Below, piece by piece: positions 35,100-62,826 of a DNA stretch of 64,000 nt. The first letter of the stretch is position 1. The number at the start of each line of letters is the position of its first letter. Under the pieces are notes generated by a model. That model had not been told where the DNA came from. It searched no databases and saw only the letters and a list, made by a program, of their open reading frames with translations. A program made the translations under genes and the position numbers. Source of the stretch: a virus (taxonomy: Duplodnaviria > Caudoviricetes); IMG/VR virus record IMGVR_UViG_3300033463_000027, positions 32,001 through 96,000 of that record. The stretch is one strand, 5' to 3'.

Positions 35100-37100
35100 G
35101 GATATAGTTATACCCTATTCTATTATACCACGTTTAGTATGGTGGTGTCAAGTGGTTTTGTGGGTACAGCATATAATTTTGTATAGGTGCAATATTGGTT
35201 ATATTATTTAATTTATAGTAGGTTGAAGGGGTGATGATAGGGGTCTGAGATAGGATTTTTGGGGTGTTTGATTAATTATACGTGTTTAATTGTTTCGGTG
35301 AGATTGCGGAAAGGGTTGATTTTCAAGGGTTAGAGAGGGGTTGGGTAGGTTTGATTTATCGTTTTTCGATAAAAAGAAAAAGTAGTAGGAGTGGTGATTC
35401 CTACTACTTGGTGGAGAGATAATTGGGTATTTTGTTTGTATTTACGTGGGGTTTACGTGTTTTTGGGGTAGGGGAGTACGTGGGGGTAAAGAGGTACGGA
35501 AGGTTTGGGAGCGGGGTGAGTTGATTTGGTGGTAACCTAACCACGCCTTGCGGGGTCGGGGTCAGGTCATGAACGTAAAGTCACCCCGGTCTCTGAGCGA
35601 GATCGTCCGGGTATAGTAGTTTGTGCGGTTCAAGTACGCGGGTTTATCCCGCGTTTAGAGCAATTGCAAAAATTCAATAATATCGTCGTTTGCGGCGTGT
35701 TTTGCCGTCGGCGGTGGGTGCTCTTTACATTTCGTTTTTTGCACAAAGTCGAAATGTCAAGGCAAATTAACCCTCATGCAAGCCGAACAAATCAGCGGTT
35801 GACTTTTCAGGGGCTTGAATTTGTAGCAGAATAACAGGTGTTATAGCGTGATATCATTTTGATATCATTTTGATATCGGTATACGTTACGCCTAAACAAA
35901 TATGTTTAGTCTACATTTTCTCCACTCTCGGTGTATAAAATGCAGATTTACAATCACTTACAATTACTTACAATTTGTTTGACAAAATACAAATATCCTC
36001 GATCACTTCCGCAAATTACTAAACAAATATGTTTAAGTTATCAATACTAAACAAATATGTTTAGTATAACTATCATTATTATATTTATTACAAATTGGTT
36101 ACAATATATTACAATATGGTTACAATAATTACAAATCAATTACAATACTAATTATTACAAAACAGTTACAAATAGTTACAAACTAATTACAAATATTACA
36201 ATAAAGTATCAACAAAACTTTCAACACTATTCAACAAACTTTCAACAAAAATAAGTTTACCATAAAAACAAATACATAAAATATCGGTCAAATAAATCAA
36301 TCTGATTTTCTTCGATCGTATAACTATACGATGCACATATACAAATCAGCTACAAATCACCTATACAATATATAGTATATATCAATACAAAAAAGCATAA
36401 AAGACACTACATCTTGTATGCTAACATATTATCATATACAATTATATTATGATTTACACAAAAAATCATTCCGCTATATACAAAAATATATACCTATATG
36501 CAATTATTTCATTACATTCATTTAACTATTAACATCTTATTCACATTCACCAATACCGCATATTATATGCAATATACACAACTTTCAACAATTAAATTTA
36601 TGCACATTTACTTTAATTATCAATCACATACATATTAATAATCTATTCATAAATTGGTGATCTGCCTGAGCAGGCATTATATATAAATCATATATAATAT
36701 AAATCATAACAAATATAAATCAACTATAATCAAATCTGCAAATATTACAAATCAAACATAATATGAATTATACAATATCCGATATATACATAACAAACAT
36801 CAATCATTTTACAAGTAAATTACAATTAAGCTGCGCATTATCAATATTTATTAATTGATAAATATTGCGTTATGTCAAACTATTTGTAAATAACTGTAAA
36901 TGATCTTGGTGCCTGAGCAGGCACTTTATATATATTTTAAACATATTATACTTTAAATATAACTATCCTGATCTCCGATACCTTCCCCCGAAAAATCATA
37001 TATAACACACTTTATCAAACTGTAAGCGATTTAAGGCGGGTTTGTATGTGGGTAGTATAGTTATATAGGGTATACACTAAAAACGTCATACGGGGCTTGT
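35100..37100. other. Long non-coding region with strand-skew switch and repeats (candidate packaging/terminus or origin)
   Basis: G/T-rich plus strand to ~35560, A/C-rich after ~35880; 3x CTAAACAAATATGTTTA, many TTACAA, 2x TGCCTGAGCAGGCA. Confidence 0.5.
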
Positions 37101-37615: not shown

Positions 37616-37754
37616 TTACAATATATTGTGGTGTAAGACTTTGACAAACACAATATATTGTATTACAATTCGTCTATTGTACATAATATACAATTCGTCT
37701 ATTGTAAGTTTGTGCAATTCGTCTATTGTATTCCTGATTGATTCGTGATATAAT
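37616..37754 (+). promoter_or_regulatory. Divergent control region: two sigma-A promoters, tandem NrdR-like boxes, 3 direct repeats
   Basis: TTGACA(37641)-17-TACAAT; TTGTAT(37726)-17-TATAAT; CAATTCGTCTATTGTA at 37666, 37691 and 37715. Confidence 0.65.
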
Positions 37755-44618: not shown

Positions 44619-44736
44619 CATACAATATATAGTGTTTACAGAACAGAAACGGCACAAAATATGGTGTTGGAATCCGAATAAAAGGTAAGTTTTAGCGGCT
44701 GTCCTATCGGCTTGACGGGGAGAAATGGAGTATATC

Positions 44737-45414
44737 ATGAATAAGAACAAATTAGAAATAATACTTGAAAAGCACAATAAATGGTGGAATAATGAGGAAG
44801 GAGGAGAAAGAGCTGACTTGTGCGGAGCTGACTTGCGCGAAGCTGACTTGCGCGGAGCTAACTTGCGCGAAGCTGACTTGCGCGGAGCTAACTTGTGCGG
44901 AGCTAACTTGTGCGGAGCTAACTTGCGCGGAGCTAACTTGCGCGGAGCTAACTTGTGCGGAGCTAACTTGCGCGGAGCTAACTTGTGCGGAGCTAACTTG
45001 CGCGGAGCTAACTTGCGCGGAGCTGACTTGCGCGAAGCTGACTTGCGCGGAGCTAATCTATCTATGGCAGAAAATTTATTGTCTGCTATTGCTTACATTA
45101 AGGACAACTTTGAAACGACCAATGAAGGAATTGTTGTTTATAAAACTTTCGGTGGGTCTTATAATCCTCCTGAAAAATGGGTTATACAGTCTGGCTCGAT
45201 ATTATCGGAGAACTGCAATATGAATCGCACTGATTTATGCGGCTGTGGAATCAATGTTGCACCTATTGAATGGGTAAAAAATAATTATTGTGGTGATATA
45301 TGGAAATGCCTTATCCGTTGGGAGTGGCTTTGTGGAGTTTGTGTACCTTATAATACAGATGGAAAAATAAGGGCTGAAATGGTGGAGCTCATTGAAATAG
45401 TTGATAGAGATTAA
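44737..45414 (+). CDS. Pentapeptide repeat protein
   Basis: A(D/N)L(R/C)(G/E) repeats encoded by 15-bp tandem repeats ~44811-45060. Confidence 0.9.
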
Positions 45415-52099: not shown

Positions 52100-52317
52100 A
52101 AGAAAGGAGTGAACAAACCATGCAGAATGACATTGATGCTGTTATCAGACAGGTTTTGGTGCAAGCAGTCAATGGCAAGGTATCAGATTTCTATGCTTTG
52201 GTAACTGCGGAGTACGAGCCTGATATGTACACTCGTGAAGATGACTATTTTGTGGCGAGAAAAAGAATACAGCATAAGGCAGAAACCGTAAGGTTTGTTC
52301 ACCTCTATGCGGAGTAA
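52096..52317 (+). CDS. Hypothetical protein
   Basis: ORF in operon; start may be 52120. Confidence 0.5.
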   Translation: MKERSEQTMQNDIDAVIRQVLVQAVNGKVSDFYALVTAEYEPDMYTREDDYFVARKRIQHKAETVRFVHLYAE

Positions 52318-52369
52318 ACAAACGCAAAGTGCGTTTGACATATACTATTATCTAAAGGAGAAATGTCCT

Positions 52370-53593
52370 ATGAACACATTAACAACAGCAAATGTAAGCG
52401 GAATGTCACTTCCCATTATGGAAGTAAACGGAACAAGAGTGTTGACTACAGCACAGTTAGCGGAGTGCTATGGAACAACGGAGCGCAGGATATCTGAAAA
52501 CTTTAATGCCAACAAAGATCGGTATGAAAAAAACAAACATTATGTTGCTCTCGAAGGCGAAGAGAAACGGAATTTTCTCAACCATACGAAAATTCCGTAT
52601 GGTTCAAAAGCCGCAAAATTTTATCTCTGGACAGAACGCGGAGCTTTACTTCATGCAAAGTCTCTTGGAACTAATAAGGCATGGGAAGTATACGATATAT
52701 TGGTGGACAATTATTTTACCTCTGCTAAGATAGTTACCATCACGCCTACCGATGCTGCTCGAATACTTGCAGAGAATAATCTAAACAACAGAAAAATCAA
52801 TCAAGCGAACGTTCGGAAGTACGCCGACGATATGCTACTTGGTAAGTTTGAACTTAACGGAGATACTATTCGCTTCTACGCCGATGGAACCTTGGCAGAT
52901 GGACAGCATAGACTTATGGCTTGTGTGCTTTCAGGAGTTCCTTTTAAAACCTATGTAGTTAAGGGTTTGGAGAAAAAGGTTCTTCCCACTATTGACTGCG
53001 GCAAGCCCCGGAATATGGTTGAAACTCTGAACATGATAGGTTGTGGAGTAAATAAGATGATAGTTCCTGCGATGAACCTTTACTTTAATAATAGAGCGAG
53101 TCTTACTGCTAATCAGGTACAAGTCCTTTGGGATAAGTATTCGGATAAACTTGAAAAACTATGTACTATATTAAAGGGAAGTCACCACGATCACATTCTC
53201 TCACAGAAAGACGTAAGGGCATACTTTATGCACTTACTGTTAGCGGAGAACTGGACAGAAGATGATGTTCAAACCTTTGTCAACGGATTAAAGACCAAAC
53301 CTAATTGCGCAACCAATTTCGATTATACTTGTTATAATTTCAGACGTTGGTACGACCGCAGGATTCATAGAAAGATTACCGATGGCAAGAAGTGTAAGAA
53401 CAATCCCAAGTCTTTGATGACTATTGAAGGATTATGTACTGTTGCGGATTCGTATATACAAGACAAGCAGTATAACAAGTTTGCTGGAACTAAGTTGACA
53501 CGCGCCAATGGAGTTCTTGAAAGAGGACAAGCGTTAGCTCAGATACAGTTTCAGTTAATGGAATCCTCTAACTTAACATTGACCTCTACTTAA
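52370..53593 (+). CDS. ORF6N + ParB-like domain protein
   Basis: ORF6N N-terminus; NNRKIN...DGQHRL. Confidence 0.8.
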   Translation: MNTLTTANVSGMSLPIMEVNGTRVLTTAQLAECYGTTERRISENFNANKDRYEKNKHYVALEGEEKRNFLNHTKIPYGSKAAKFYLWTERGALLHAKSLGTNKAWEVYDILVDNYFTSAKIVTITPTDAARILAENNLNNRKINQANVRKYADDMLLGKFELNGDTIRFYADGTLADGQHRLMACVLSGVPFKTYVVKGLEKKVLPTIDCGKPRNMVETLNMIGCGVNKMIVPAMNLYFNNRASLTANQVQVLWDKYSDKLEKLCTILKGSHHDHILSQKDVRAYFMHLLLAENWTEDDVQTFVNGLKTKPNCATNFDYTCYNFRRWYDRRIHRKITDGKKCKNNPKSLMTIEGLCTVADSYIQDKQYNKFAGTKLTRANGVLERGQALAQIQFQLMESSNLTLTST

Positions 53594-53657: not shown

Positions 53658-53935
53658 GTCAATAACTCACTGCTTATAGAAGCAGGAGCTTGTAAATGCT
53701 CAAATTGACTACCCTAAGTTCTTCAAGAACTACGTTATGCAAGAATTGTATAAGTTCTTTTATACTAAATAGTTACCCGTGAGCGTTATGCCTAACTTGC
53801 GGCTCTAAGGCAAATGGTTAAATAGTTCTGTGGAGTAGGAACAGTGCTGTTCGCAGTAAAACCTTGCAATAACATTGGGGAAGGCATTTAACAGCTTTGT
53901 ATGTGCTGTCTTACAGAGTAGAACATACAATTTGA
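53658..53935 (+). ncRNA. omegaRNA (HEARO-like) scaffold
   Basis: GTCAA...TTGACT...CTACGTT...AACATTGGGGAAGG motifs upstream of iscB. Confidence 0.8.
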
Positions 53936-55237
53936 CTGAAAGGAGTGTTTTTTGGTGGTATATGTGATAAACAAAAACGGACAGCCGCTTATGCCAACCG
54001 AGAGACACGGTAAAGTGAGACGATTGCTTAAAATAGGAAAGGCTAAAGTAATCAAACGCTGTCCGTTTACTATTCAGCTTCTTTATGCTACGACTGATTT
54101 TGTACAAGAAGTCACTTTGGGAGTAGATAGTGGGAGTAAGCATATTGGAGTATCAGCGACAACAAAAGACAAAGTTTTGTATGAAGCTGATATAGAGCTT
54201 AGAAACGATATTGTCAAGCTGTTATCTGCAAGAAGAGAGGCAAGACGTACAAGGCGCAATAGAAAAACTCGTTACAGACAGGCTCGGTTTAACAACCGCA
54301 GTAAGCCCGATGGTTGGCTTGCCCCGTCAGTGCAACACAAGGTCGATGCTCATTTGACTGTCGTTCGTAAAGTGTATGAGATTCTTCCAATTGCAAAAAT
54401 CATAGTCGAGGTTGCTTCTTTTGATATTCAGAAAATCAAAAATCCATATATTAAGGGAGAAGAATATCAGCAAGGTGAACAGCTTGATTTCTGGAACGTA
54501 AGAGAGTATGTGCTTTTCAGAGATAGTCATGTGTGTCAGTGTTGCAAGGGCAAATCAAAAGATAATATTCTCAATGTACATCACATAGAATCACGGCAGA
54601 CAGGCGGGGATGCTCCCAATAACCTTATCACTCTCTGCGAGACCTGCCATTTAGGGTATCATAAAGGGACTGTGAAACTTCCAAAGACCATAAAGCGGGG
54701 GATGTCTTTTAGAGATGCAGCTTTCATGGGAATAATGCGATGGGCGTTTTACAATAAACTTAAATATATATATCCGAACGTTAATCTGACTTACGGATAT
54801 ATCACCAAAAACGCCCGTATTAAAAACACTCTTTCCAAAAGCCACTTTACAGATGCAAGGTGCATAAGCGGAAATCCGAAAGCTGTATCCGATGATGTAG
54901 TTTTCTATCAGAAAAAAGCCAGATGTCATAACAGACAGATACATAAATACAACATACTCAAGGGCGGGTTGAAAAAGAAAAACCAAGCACCGTATGAAAT
55001 GTTCGGTTTTAGGTTGTTTGACAGGGTAAAGTATCTTGGAAAAGAGTACTTTATCTTTGGTAGGAGAGCATCAGGATATTTTGATATAAGAGACTTACAA
55101 GGAAATAAGGTTAACAAAGGGAGTATTTCCTATAAAAAGTTGACCTTTATCGAACGGGCTAAAACTTATTTAACTGAAAGGAGGAAGGAGCATTCCTCCC
55201 CGACTTTTGAAGTTGGGGTATCCTGCTCCTATTTTAG
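53658..55237 (+). mobile_element. Non-autonomous IS200/IS605-family IscB element
   Basis: Starts GTCAA (omegaRNA 5' end); ends with hairpin GGAGCA..CCCCGACTT/AAGTTGGGG..TGCTCC, followed by ATGA; no TnpA. Confidence 0.8.
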
Positions 55238-55241
55238 ATGA
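53952..55241 (+). CDS. iscB: IscB RNA-guided endonuclease
   Basis: PLMP, RuvC-I GVDSG, RRxRR bridge helix, HNH (HHI...NLITLCETCH), SHFTDA. Confidence 0.95.
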   Translation: MVVYVINKNGQPLMPTERHGKVRRLLKIGKAKVIKRCPFTIQLLYATTDFVQEVTLGVDSGSKHIGVSATTKDKVLYEADIELRNDIVKLLSARREARRTRRNRKTRYRQARFNNRSKPDGWLAPSVQHKVDAHLTVVRKVYEILPIAKIIVEVASFDIQKIKNPYIKGEEYQQGEQLDFWNVREYVLFRDSHVCQCCKGKSKDNILNVHHIESRQTGGDAPNNLITLCETCHLGYHKGTVKLPKTIKRGMSFRDAAFMGIMRWAFYNKLKYIYPNVNLTYGYITKNARIKNTLSKSHFTDARCISGNPKAVSDDVVFYQKKARCHNRQIHKYNILKGGLKKKNQAPYEMFGFRLFDRVKYLGKEYFIFGRRASGYFDIRDLQGNKVNKGSISYKKLTFIERAKTYLTERRKEHSSPTFEVGVSCSYFR

Positions 55242-55331
55242 ACTTAAAGTGATTACCATATAGTAAACGTGCGTATTATAGCGGTTCAGCGGAGTTATAA
55301 ATCCGCGCATTGTCTTGAAAGGAGTATAAAT

Positions 55332-56297
55332 ATGGATAACACAGCAAGAAAGCTAACTATCAGCGGAAACAACATTGATATTTCCGTAGTCAAGTCCAAG
55401 AAAAAGGACAGAATACAATCTAAGATTGTAACCGAGGACGAGTTCGCGGAGATTTATCGCTCTGCTGATGCGATAACTTCTGCAAAGGACATAGAAAATA
55501 TGTGTCTTACGCTCTATAAAAGGGGTTATGTAGATAGCATGGTTCTCTTTATCGTTGGAACCAATATTGGCTATCGTCCTGTCGATTTACAAGCGTGGAG
55601 ATGGGAGCAGATTACCGATGAAAACGGAAACATTCTTCGGAGATTTGCTATGAACGAACACAAGACAAGCAAGATGACAGTAGTTAATTTCAATGAGACT
55701 GTTGTTAAACTTCTTACATGGTATAGGGATTATAAAATGTCTCAACCCAAGTTTATGTGGGAGAATTATGTTTTTTCTGTAAGCATAAAAAATGCGGCAA
55801 GAAGTTATGTGTGGTATGATAAAGAAAACGATATTATCTATCACCAAGATAGGAAACATAAACAGTTGGGGCTTGTATATTATCATGAGGGCAAAAATAT
55901 TATTACTTGTCCTGCGTGTGAAGTTATCGGAAACGAGAAGTATCTTAAATTGCAAAAGCCCATTACGACTGAAACTGCCAGTAACAATTTTATTGAAGCT
56001 GCGGAGAAATGCGGAATTGAGGGACATTTTTCGTCATATACAATGCGGCAAACGTTCAGCTTTTGGTTTAGAAAAACCTTAAAAGAGGACGAAACTCTTG
56101 CAAATGTAGCTGATGAATACTTCTCGACCATGCTGCTGAGTGGATATTTTCAGCATAGCAGTTTAAAGGTCACGCAAAAACACTATATGCGAGATCAAGT
56201 TGCGTTATTCAGACAGATTGTAAACAAGATGAACCTTGCTAAAGATTTTGTGGATTGTCTGGTCGAAAAGGATAATGCAGTACAGATGTGTTTATAA
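55332..56297 (+). CDS. Tyrosine recombinase/integrase-family protein
   Basis: GYRPVD (R), EHKT (K), YTMRQTF, QHSS...TQKHY (Y). Confidence 0.75.
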   Translation: MDNTARKLTISGNNIDISVVKSKKKDRIQSKIVTEDEFAEIYRSADAITSAKDIENMCLTLYKRGYVDSMVLFIVGTNIGYRPVDLQAWRWEQITDENGNILRRFAMNEHKTSKMTVVNFNETVVKLLTWYRDYKMSQPKFMWENYVFSVSIKNAARSYVWYDKENDIIYHQDRKHKQLGLVYYHEGKNIITCPACEVIGNEKYLKLQKPITTETASNNFIEAAEKCGIEGHFSSYTMRQTFSFWFRKTLKEDETLANVADEYFSTMLLSGYFQHSSLKVTQKHYMRDQVALFRQIVNKMNLAKDFVDCLVEKDNAVQMCL

Positions 56298-56358: not shown

Positions 56359-56940
56359 ATGAAAACTTTAAAGGTTACTTGGAAAGGCACAAAGACTCTG
56401 ATTATGCACTCTTGCCAGTGCGTTAATCCCCTTAATCCGATTCAAAAGGAATTGAAAAAGTACACTTCAAAAAGAACCAAAACTGATGAAGATTTACAGA
56501 GAATTTCTGATCTTGAATGGGAAGCTGGGGCTTATTGGAAAGAAGGTATGGGACTTTATATCCCCGGAGAAAATGTGATAGCAACCATTATTAATGGTGC
56601 AAAACTCTTCAAGAAGGGTACTGATGTTCAAAAGTATGTTTCTGTTCCTAATGTGCATATTCCGTTTAATTACGGAGAAAATCTCACTAAGGAAGAACTG
56701 ATTGCTGATAAAGATTATCGTGATGTAAGACCTATGGTCGTTGGTAAGGCAAAGGTTATAAGAACAAGACCAAGATTCGATCAGTGGAATATTACTTTTA
56801 ACCTTGAATATGAAGAGGATAAGATTGACCGTGATGTTGTCATTCTTGCATTAGAAAATGCAGGAAAGTATGTGGGGCTTTGCGATAGTCGCAACTATGG
56901 CTATGGGCGATTTGTCGTAAAAGCAGAAGAGTTGGATTGA
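56359..56940 (+). CDS. Solo RAMP/Cas7-like RNA-binding protein
   Basis: N-terminal beta strand LKVTWKG..LIMH, LYIPG, RTRPRF..W, C-terminal Gly-rich loop VGLCDSRNYGYGRF. Confidence 0.7.
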   Translation: MKTLKVTWKGTKTLIMHSCQCVNPLNPIQKELKKYTSKRTKTDEDLQRISDLEWEAGAYWKEGMGLYIPGENVIATIINGAKLFKKGTDVQKYVSVPNVHIPFNYGENLTKEELIADKDYRDVRPMVVGKAKVIRTRPRFDQWNITFNLEYEEDKIDRDVVILALENAGKYVGLCDSRNYGYGRFVVKAEELD

Positions 56941-56945
56941 GATAG

Positions 56946-57378
56946 GGATTATATGTTTGGTTCTGTTCTGTTGTGTTTCGTTAGGTTCCGTTCAGTTCAG
57001 TTGCGCTAAGTTATGTATTGTAGGTTGTGTTTTGTTTCGTTAAGTCGAGTTTCGTTGTGTTGTGTTGCGTTAGGTTGGGTATTATAAGTTAAGCTCCGTT
57101 GCGTTGAGTTTAGTTGTGTTAAGTTCAGTTTGGTTGGGATAGGTATTATAAGTTAAGTTAAGATGTATTATGTTGTGTTTAGTCAGGTTGCGTTAAGCTA
57201 AGTTAAGTATTATAAGTTAGGTTCTGTTTCGTTGTATTGAGTTATGTTGGGGTTCGTTTGGTTCGGTTATGTTTGGTTGAGCTAAGTATTATAAGTTGCG
57301 CTATATTAAGTTATGTTGAGTTAGGTCAAGTTGCGTTGCGTTATGTTAAGTTGCGTTGGGTTAAGTCAAGCATTATAG
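56946..57378 (+). repeat. GTT-NN pentamer array (74 pentamers, six units, 9-nt GTATTATAA delimiters); candidate guide-RNA array
   Basis: Delimiters at 56946, 57015, 57079, 57143, 57207, 57286 and 57370; units of 12, 11, 11, 11, 14 and 15 pentamers. Confidence 0.9.
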
Positions 57379-57413
57379 GCTTTGAAAAAAAATACCAAGA
57401 AAGGAAAATTATT

Positions 57414-57878
57414 ATGAATGAGTTAATCAACAATAAGACAATCGCGGAGGTTCTTGCGGAAGAAATTGATAAACTTCCCTATGAAACTGTAATCGAGCAT
57501 GGACAAATAGAGTCCATCATCGGAGTTCCGAGAGGTCTGAACAAGTATGGTTCTACTATTGCAAAAGCAAAGAAGTTACTTATAGAGAAGCGGAAACATA
57601 TTGAGAGTATACGGGGTGTTGGTTATCGGATAGTCGCGCCTGATAACGTGATAGATCGTTCACTTCATCACATTAAAAGAGGTTGTAATGAAATCAAAAA
57701 AGGGCAGGAAATCTTAGATCATGCACCTGTTAATGATATGAGTGTAGAGGGTCGTGAAGCCTATCGTAGAGTATATGACAGAGCTGTTATCCTTGATGCT
57801 GCTATGAAAGGCGCTGCCGTGGAGCTTAAAGAGCTTGCGGGTAAACGTCCTCATCCGTTTTTGTTTTGTAAGAAATGA
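57414..57878 (+). CDS. Winged-helix-like protein downstream of array
   Basis: GAAAGGA RBS; IESIRGVGYRI wing motif. Confidence 0.65.
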   Translation: MNELINNKTIAEVLAEEIDKLPYETVIEHGQIESIIGVPRGLNKYGSTIAKAKKLLIEKRKHIESIRGVGYRIVAPDNVIDRSLHHIKRGCNEIKKGQEILDHAPVNDMSVEGREAYRRVYDRAVILDAAMKGAAVELKELAGKRPHPFLFCKK

Positions 57879-62720: not shown

Positions 62721-62753
62721 AAAAAGAATGGGCTGTATTGCACAGCCCACTTC
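62721..62753 (-). terminator. Terminator between antitoxin repeats and toxin
   Basis: GAAGTGGGCTGT-GCAAT-ACAGCCCATTC-TTTTT. Confidence 0.8.
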
Positions 62754-62756
62754 TAA

Positions 62757-62826
62757 AGTTCTCATTTAAGGGTCGAGATATACCCACTTTATGCAGTTCT
62801 CATTTAAGGGTCGAGATATACCCACT
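62757..62826 (-). ncRNA. toxI: ToxI-like antitoxin RNA, about 2 x 38-nt repeats
   Basis: AGTGGGTATATCTCGACCCTTAAATGAGAACT x2; pseudoknot GGGT/ACCC + TCTC/GAGA; promoter TTGACA(62883)-17-TATAAT. Confidence 0.85.

Follow-up and report, generated by a model that had tools for sequence, protein, structure and literature searches.

The stretch of DNA analysed here, hereafter called the window, is 64,000 nucleotides long and corresponds to bases 32001-96000 of a single virus record of 139,524 bp, from a gut-type phage (IMG/VR record IMGVR_UViG_3300033463_000027; Duplodnaviria, Caudoviricetes). It carries a locus in which a gene for a 193-aa protein, an array of 5-nt units and a gene for a 154-aa protein follow one another on the same strand (Table 1). 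In light of the evidence presented below, this locus is very probably a phage-encoded VIPR (Viral Interference Programmable Repeat) system, composed of a vipr gene, an array of six guide RNAs (vrRNAs) and a vap1-like gene for a DNA-binding accessory protein.

Table 1. Features of the VIPR locus, with positions counted from the first base of the window.
Feature	Position	Strand	Description	Basis
vipr gene	56359..56940	+	193 aa, RAMP protein of the VIPR system	phmmer, phrog_4652, AlphaFold2, Foldseek
vrRNA array	56946..57378	+	seven 9-nt delimiters around six guide units of GUU-NN pentamers	fixed-phase parse, composition
Guide unit 1	56955..57014	+	12 pentamers, NN = TG CT CT GT TC AG CC CA CA GC AA AT	
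Guide unit 2	57024..57078	+	11 pentamers	
Representative delimiter	57079..57087	+	GTATTATAA, 9 nt	
Guide unit 3	57088..57142	+	11 pentamers	
Guide unit 4	57152..57206	+	11 pentamers; ends AA-rich; irregular pentamers GATGT, ATTAT	
Guide unit 5	57216..57285	+	14 pentamers	
Guide unit 6	57295..57369	+	15 pentamers	
vap1-like accessory gene	57414..57878	+	154 aa, N-terminal winged-helix-like domain and long helical hairpin	synteny, weak homology, model

The array begins at the sixth base past the vipr stop codon (56940), with 5 nt in between, and ends 35 nt before the ATG at 57414. Parsed at fixed phase from its delimiters, it spans 433 nt and contains 74 pentamers. The delimiters start at 56946 (GGATTATAT), 57015 (GTATTGTAG), 57079, 57143, 57207 and 57286 (GTATTATAA in all four cases) and, closing the array, 57370 (GCATTATAG); their spacings of 69, 64, 64, 64, 79 and 84 nt equal 9 + 5n, with n = 12, 11, 11, 11, 14 and 15. 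An earlier reading of the DNA letters, hereafter the original prediction, had described an array of this length with the same pentamers, six units and spacings, and the parse reproduced it exactly. It had also announced a near-constant GTT with GCT, GTC, GAT, ATT and GGT as exceptions, and this was confirmed: the triplet is GTT in 59 of the 74 pentamers, GCT in 5, GTC in 4, ATT in 3, GAT in 2 and GGT in 1. Taken position by position, the first base is G in 71 pentamers (96%), the second is T in 66 (89%), C in 5, A in 2 and G in 1 (that is, U or C in 71/74), and the third is T in 70 and C in 4, with no purine, while all four bases are used at positions 4-5 (NN). Chains of GTT (at least 5 at 5-nt spacing) occur six times on the two strands of the whole 139,524-bp genome, all of them in this array, and no GGY chain was found on either strand; the array is thus not a product of chance, because GTT chains are confined to it genome-wide. 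No Rfam family matches the array. Its RNA is predicted to fold less stably than all 100 dinucleotide shuffles (-74 vs -86.9 kcal/mol, z=+2.84), as expected for a single strand coated with protein and in contrast to the pseudoknot tails of SUSP1. It is barely conceivable that the periodic tract is a protein-coding or simple-sequence artefact. The ORF (open reading frame) caller does take the vap frame back to a TTG at 57237, within the array, which gives an ORF at 57237-57878 overlapping it. The sequence itself contradicts this reading, as a repeat every 5 nt cannot be reconciled with coding; moreover, alignments with homologues of the 154-aa protein start at the ATG at 57414, and the array adjoins a Vipr gene in most related loci.

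The 193-aa protein matches the SUSP1 Vipr protein (PDB 36pp_D) over residues 1-188 of both, with E=4.8e-28 and ~33% identity (phmmer, PDB), and phrog_4652 with E=3.9e-49. An AlphaFold2 model built on 120 relatives (mean pLDDT 97.3) has a RAMP fold of the Cas7/Csm3 type, and its best PDB matches in Foldseek are the Cas7-family RAMPs Cmr4, Csm3 and type VII Cas7 (E ~6e-6 to 1e-4, TM 0.45-0.58). The gene had been predicted to encode a RAMP/Cas7-like protein from a YIPG motif and a C-terminal loop; homology and fold bear this out, and both motifs are found in the protein (LYIPGEN and GLCDSRNYGYGRF). The family is large, with 2324 representative clusters (50% identity) at E<=1e-3. A word search gave 1115 clusters at 90% identity, and most of the top matches listed are 192-aa metagenome proteins that are 68-73% identical to the window protein. 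Relatives for which the context is available come from phage contigs in IMG/VR (20-169 kb) and from genomes of Lachnospiraceae, Dorea and Clostridia. Neither the Vipr nor the Vap gene belongs to a Pfam or PADLOC family.

Structures of Vipr filaments have been reported with one protomer per pentamer. In them, H17 and D177 read G1, R138 holds G2, which stacks on W178 (Y176 in P. fulva), and the next protomer accommodates Y3 in a pocket that excludes purines and is made up of E71, M72, R179 and others; the contacts to DNA come from K33, R39, K82 and K88 (10.64898/2026.04.26.720927). In the gapless parts of the alignment with SUSP1, the window protein keeps H17, K33, R39, E71, K82, R137 (=R138), D176 (=D177) and R178 (=R179), and the changes are W178 to Ser177, M72 to Asn and K88 to Thr. 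The residues that read G1 and the pyrimidine at position 3 are thus intact, which fits the 96% G and 100% pyrimidine observed at those positions. The G2-stacking residue is the changed one, and position 2 is the changed base.

The vap1-like gene follows the array in 20/20 related loci that extend past the array (35-58% identity, tblastn), and its product matches phrog_5926 (E=1.9e-9). The protein is also weakly similar to the product of the gene right after vipr in LittleE (1e-6), Medea1 (6e-6), LESphi2 (4e-4) and the SUSP1-like ESCO56 (0.05), all of which have the order vipr-vap-array. Its model (pLDDT 84) consists of an N-terminal domain with the H-E-H-H-E-E succession and two long helices. 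No Foldseek match reached E<=0.001, and the weak ones obtained (E 0.008 or worse) are all winged helix-turn-helix (wHTH) regulators. In VIA, residues 1-78 gave Z 7.5-7.8 against winged-helix proteins (NSE1, PurR N-terminus); the helical hairpin gave Z ~8, which is not distinctive, and the VIA-wide list is made mostly of generic helical hairpins. We class the 154-aa gene as a vap1-like accessory gene, probably with a winged helix. The wHTH gene of the original prediction stands as a conserved partner, and its winged helix is probable only, the fold matches being weak and all to winged-helix DNA binders.

VIPR, a CRISPR-related system that silences DNA under RNA guidance, was first described in 2026; preprints of that year present it as ancestral to the backbone proteins of CRISPR and as a new logic for programmable DNA binding. 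In the founding bioRxiv preprint, Vipr works with vrRNAs that hold 9-16 GGY/NN repeats and read double-stranded DNA by a code that skips 1 nt (NNx), and the system represses phages and satellites that compete with its carrier; seven types are distinguished there, and vap accessory genes and the 'related' repeat consensuses NNNGG/YNNNG/NNNNG are described (10.64898/2026.04.26.720920). The conflict between SUSP1 and a satellite, together with solo vrRNAs, is the subject of another (10.64898/2026.10.15.759431), and yet another reports 21 clusters of Vipr-linked arrays with the non-canonical triplets GAC, CAC, WGT and TGH (10.64898/2026.10.21.760802). The original prediction had pointed to reports of VIPR; they exist, and the mechanism in them is the one it proposed, with one protomer per pentamer, a sequestered constant triplet and a presented NN. 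Its interpretation is supported, all the parts of it that could be put to the test having held.

The window locus is a member of this published family in the broad sense. Indeed, its Vipr is a minimal single-RRM RAMP homologous to published Viprs (full-length 36pp_D match, RAMP fold), the adjoining non-coding array repeats a 5-nt unit in tandem, three positions of which are conserved and two hypervariable, and a vap accessory gene is present with no cas genes or CRISPR array in the window. One of its closest described counterparts is type II VIPR (Escherichia phage SUSP1, Pseudomonas fulva prophage; PDB 36pp), with which it shares full-length Vipr homology, pentamers in which three bases are constant and two vary, units that hold 11-15 repeats, a small accessory gene of the DNA-binding type (by weak homology), a phage setting, the lack of cas genes and CRISPR, and conserved G1/Y3 recognition residues. 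However, type II has GGY repeats with an aromatic residue on G2, whereas the window locus has GUU with Ser; the type II array has a ~40-nt pseudoknot tail, whereas the units of the window are separated by a 9-nt AU-rich delimiter; the type II order is vipr-vap-array with a further vrRNA upstream, instead of vipr-array-vap; and type II hosts are Proteobacteria, in contrast to the low-GC gut Clostridia of the window clade. Since the locus lacks three features of canonical type II (SUSP1-like) systems, namely a GGY triplet, an aromatic residue stacked on G2 and a structured 3' tail, it is classed as a VIPR variant and not as type II proper. With the non-canonical-repeat clusters it shares a Vipr-fold protein adjoining a 5-nt-periodic array whose fixed triplet is not GGY (10.64898/2026.10.21.760802).

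The RAMPs of class 1 CRISPR systems (Cas7/Csm3/Cmr4) are the best structural matches of the window protein; they share its RRM core, G-loop and thumb fold, and polymerise along a guide RNA with periodic base flipping. They are nevertheless distant (10-15% identity, TM 0.45-0.58) and have a period of 6 nt with one guide base sequestered, against 5 nt and three in Vipr. Unlike class 1 loci, the window locus has no repeat-spacer array, Cas5, Cas6, large subunit or adaptation genes. No neighbouring gene has a Cas or PADLOC match, and the window holds no CRISPR-like tandem repeat, so that the hallmark of class 1 CRISPR-Cas (a repeat-spacer array with Cas5/Cas6/large subunit, usually cas1-cas2) is lacking; the absence of cas1/2/5/6 and of a classical repeat-spacer array, as originally predicted, thus holds for the window. 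A megablast search with 20 kb of the window gave no match among GenBank phages.

This kind of system is already published, in four 2026 preprints of which one covers non-canonical triplets as a class. The available text of 10.64898/2026.04.26.720920 and 10.64898/2026.10.21.760802, figures listing all motifs aside, names neither GTT/NN nor GYY/NN, and ties no motif change to a residue change. As far as this can be checked, three aspects are new: the GUU (more generally G-Y-Y) scaffold tied to a G-loop Ser, the tail-less array with 9-nt delimiters and the sense-codon signature of the guides. The GTT/NN motif may already be listed in the supplementary figures of two preprints.

The architecture of the window locus recurs in its relatives (numbered below with an L). 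Most of 22 related loci, from IMG/VR and from Lachnospiraceae/Clostridia, have a GTT-NN array downstream of vipr, and the check suggested with the original prediction, namely a search for homologues with adjoining 5-nt-periodic arrays, therefore turned out in its favor. In all eight related loci inspected in detail the 9-nt delimiter architecture was confirmed. In the relatives, vipr is followed by units of 8-19 GTT-NN pentamers, with a delimiter before the first unit and after the last. The clade consensus of the delimiter is G[CT]ATT[AT]T[AG]N, usually after a GTTAG or GTTAA that closes the unit, and in GGY sister clades the delimiter is GGATT + 4 nt. The sister Lachnospiraceae-type loci L008, L022 and L033 are alike in having a 54-56% identical Vipr, the order vipr-array-vap and the GGATT + 4 nt delimiter, but differ in their GGU/GGC repeats and in having Tyr, Cys or Met where the GUU clade has Ser. 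L009-L012 have nearly identical Viprs, yet at most 1 guide in common, which argues for hypervariable NN strings with a fast turnover on a fixed scaffold. In L006 there are two arrays, before and after vap (L006:3628-3692 and L006:5017-5140), and they share a near-identical guide, which suggests that unit duplication is a way in which arrays grow. In two other relatives, vipr has a single in-frame TAA (codon 18 in L005:3001-3576; codon 44 in L012:3001-3582), with full GTT-NN arrays and vap retained; these genes may be inactivated by nonsense mutations with their guides retained, or the stops may be sequencing errors. Stop-codon recoding was rejected for both, as TAA also terminates those same genes.

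One way to read the delimiter is as an aberrant pentamer (G-Y-A-U-U) whose position 3 is a purine, plus 4 nt that shift the phase. As position 3 is held in the purine-excluding pocket of the neighbouring protomer, we propose that the delimiter ends the filament. It is also conceivable, though on balance unlikely, that the array is not cut into six guides and serves either as a single long RNA under its protein coat or as a stock of units, the 9-nt elements doing no more than breaking the register or marking past recombination. The locus has neither a ribozyme nor a hairpin nor a Cas6-like gene, the delimiter is too short to fold, and staggered or overlapping arrays are found among the published types. 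Yet no other part of the array is as conserved across the clade as the delimiters, which flank every unit, the first and the last included, and unit lengths of 8-19 pentamers agree with the 9-16 repeats published for vrRNAs.

The change at the G2-stacking residue can be followed among relatives. The W178-equivalent column of 120 aligned proteins holds Y in 46, W in 17, F in 16, S in 13, G in 7 and other residues. DNA was fetched for four Ser-type proteins outside the window clade (P0154, P0235, P0248 and P0158). The Ser-type Viprs go with GUU in the window clade, GCC/GUC for P0154, GCC for P0235 and P0248, and GCA for P0158, i.e. with a pyrimidine at repeat position 2 in every Ser-type lineage examined (four separate Vipr lineages). 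The original prediction had proposed a GUU/NN variant of the GGY/NN repeat, which agrees with the single G in 74 found at position 2 of the window array. Aromatic-type Viprs with GGY include L008 (Y), L026 and L028-L031 (W/Y), SUSP1 (W) and P. fulva (Y), and L027 (Y) has GG-type periodicity only. GGY or GG-type repeats were also found in the aromatic-type phages MakoManhole (weak signal), Medea1 (GG-type periodicity only), LESphi2, LittleE, Trine and ESCO56. Moreover, the Ser/GUU clade of the window sits inside a larger clade, supported at 99%, that also has aromatic members, and L008-type loci, at ~56% identity, have GGU arrays of the same architecture.

The variable bases were compared with the six possible codon registers of the long ORFs of the window phage. 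The 358 inner NN of the clade (47 guides) fit sense codon positions 1-2 best: the frequencies of A, C, G and T are.33,.13,.33 and.21 at NN position 4 vs.35/.14/.31/.20 at codon position 1, and.37/.15/.18/.31 at NN position 5 vs.39/.19/.15/.28 at codon position 2. The log-likelihood of this register is +27 over the genome background, compared with -13 to -67 for the other five registers or strands (40-94 units worse). Such a fit is what the published wobble-skipping rule predicts for coding targets; as the guides carry the sense of the mRNA, it argues for pairing with the template DNA strand and not with mRNA. Transcription from the minus strand, which would yield NN-AAC repeats, was considered and rejected: the flanking genes lie on the plus strand, conservation covers G1/Y3 as well as the residues that contact them, and the codon signature is specific to the sense orientation.

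Targets were also sought directly. Against the phage's own 139.5-kb genome, with skips of 0, 1 or 2 nt, the best scores of the six guides were 15-21 of 22-30, and the only perfect matches were those of the array to itself, at skip 3. In IMG/VR, exact NNx patterns of four guides (units 2 and 3, the first 10 NN of unit 1 and the first 12 NN of unit 6) had 0 matches, and those of unit 3 and unit 2 (first 10 NN) had 0 among JGI metagenome contigs. With <=3 mismatches allowed, unit 3 had no match in 5 Lachnospiraceae genomes with related loci, and its 3 matches in 401 family-level genomes are at chance level, a backward control giving 2. Similarly, no skip rule stood out when the 47 guides (window and 13 related loci) were compared with 633 kb of DNA (mean best match 0.77, 0.77 and 0.76). 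A working Vipr-vrRNA complex might follow another pairing rule or act on another type of target, such as RNA or DNA read with a different skip length. The skip rule has been demonstrated for GGY systems only, the exact 1-nt-skip patterns of four guides are without a match in IMG/VR or JGI metagenomes, and the SUSP1 Vipr can pair with ssRNA in vitro (10.64898/2026.04.26.720927). We nevertheless regard this alternative as improbable: the NN composition fits adjacent sense codon positions 1-2 far better than other registers, a guide with the sense of an mRNA is unable to pair with it, while the template DNA strand is open to such pairing, and K33, R39 and K82, which contact target and non-target DNA, are conserved.

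The remaining alternative is a decaying or inactive VIPR remnant, in which the array would have drifted from GGY to GUU and would no longer load onto the protein. GUU does depart from the motif needed in SUSP1, where perturbation of GGY abolished silencing; the in-frame TAA codons in the vipr genes of L005 and L012, and the lack of targets in the searches run, point in the same direction. However, the vipr gene of the window is intact, with all the key RNA- and DNA-contact residues except W178, and GUU is uniform (89-100% per position) and not a scatter of mutations. It is moreover common to most of the related loci examined and to a protein clade with >1000 database relatives, the third position is a pyrimidine in 74/74, and guides turn over while the scaffold stays. 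A remnant is thus very unlikely.

Taken with the published structures, these data suggest the following course of events for the VIPR reading. The vipr gene, the array and the vap1-like gene would be read rightward as one unit, given their shared strand, the 5-nt gap and the lack of a predicted terminator. By homology with the solved SUSP1 filament, Vipr protomers would coat the transcript, one per pentamer, with G1 read by H17 and D176 and the position-3 pyrimidine in the pocket of E71 and R178, all of which are conserved here. The covariation described above suggests that position 2 is U and not G because the G2-stacking aromatic (W178 in SUSP1, Y176 in P. fulva) is replaced by Ser177. The 9-nt delimiter might, more speculatively, shift the 5-nt register by 4 nt and place a purine at position 3, where the pyrimidine pocket would exclude it; this could end the filament and leave an AU-rich linker open to host RNases, releasing six vrRNAs of 11-15 NN. 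[quoted passage not shown]

From this we put forward a tentative proposal, about which we are more doubtful than confident. A single aromatic-to-Ser change in the G-loop, having arisen several times, might re-specify the scaffold from GGY to G-Y-Y and thereby give Vipr-vrRNA pairs that are orthogonal to the canonical ones and insulated from the solo or decoy vrRNAs and the Viprs of rivals. In addition, the 9-nt delimiter, with its position-3 purine, might be a built-in filament terminator that lets host RNases cut a tail-less array without a dedicated processing element.

Several observations weigh against these interpretations. The link between Ser and the pyrimidine is a correlation across 4-5 lineages, and the tree they are placed on is poorly resolved: by parsimony, six changes are required for the Ser state on this quick maximum-likelihood tree, but the strongly supported branches force two only. 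Met, Cys, Lys and Gly variants keep GGY-like repeats, and one Ala variant has NGU; the residue is therefore not the sole determinant, and Ser looks sufficient but would not be the only route away from the aromatic state. The constant-triplet statistics of the other loci are motif-filtered and partly circular, the window's own counts alone being unbiased. Similarly, the codon signal comes from the clade, as the 56 inner NN of the window give a weak signal (+1.5) and are too few alone. No protospacer was found for the guides searched in the phage's own genome, IMG/VR, JGI metagenomes or ~400 Lachnospiraceae-family genomes, and no convincing promoter or terminator was found at the locus, where promoter-like sites are at the level of shuffled sequence.

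As a catalogue entry alone, the locus is a solid and unsurprising additional VIPR. Its interest is that a large clade of gut-Clostridia phages, with >1000 protein clusters at ~70% identity, appears to run VIPR on a different scaffold letter code, and that the locus points to a protein position that appears to set this code. If a Ser/aromatic swap does switch between G-Y-Y and G-G-Y, this would explain how co-infecting phages keep private sets of guides, and would provide pairs of Vipr and guide that are orthogonal to one another and suited to multiplexed repression. With its short delimiter, the locus would also make the array the most compact multi-guide format known for the VIPR family.

Other features of the window deserve mention. 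Directly upstream of vipr, on the same strand, is a tyrosine-recombinase-like gene (55269-56297; Phage_integrase E=1.9e-6; phrog_216 integrase), and integrase genes adjoin vipr also in L033 and L038. A second RNA-guided element lies 1.1 kb upstream of vipr (53658-55241), in which a HEARO/omega-RNA (53658-53892; Rfam RF02033, 108.6 bits, E=2e-22) is followed by a gene for a 429-aa IscB-like protein with RRXRR and HNH domains (53952-55241). Adjoining this element, a 432-aa protein (52295-53593) has an N-terminal ORF6N domain of the antirepressor type and weak matches to PADLOC PDC-S05. Further away, a 229-aa ORF (44725-45414) contains a 15-nt tandem repeat in 16.5 copies with 92% match (44810-45056), which encodes A-D/N-L-x-x pentapeptides; its product is therefore a DNA-mimic-type protein like Qnr/MfpA, here in a phage. 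Finally, short tandem repeats are found at 62746-62826 (38 nt x 2.2), 36086-36147 (21 nt x 3) and 37664-37730 (24 nt x 2.7).

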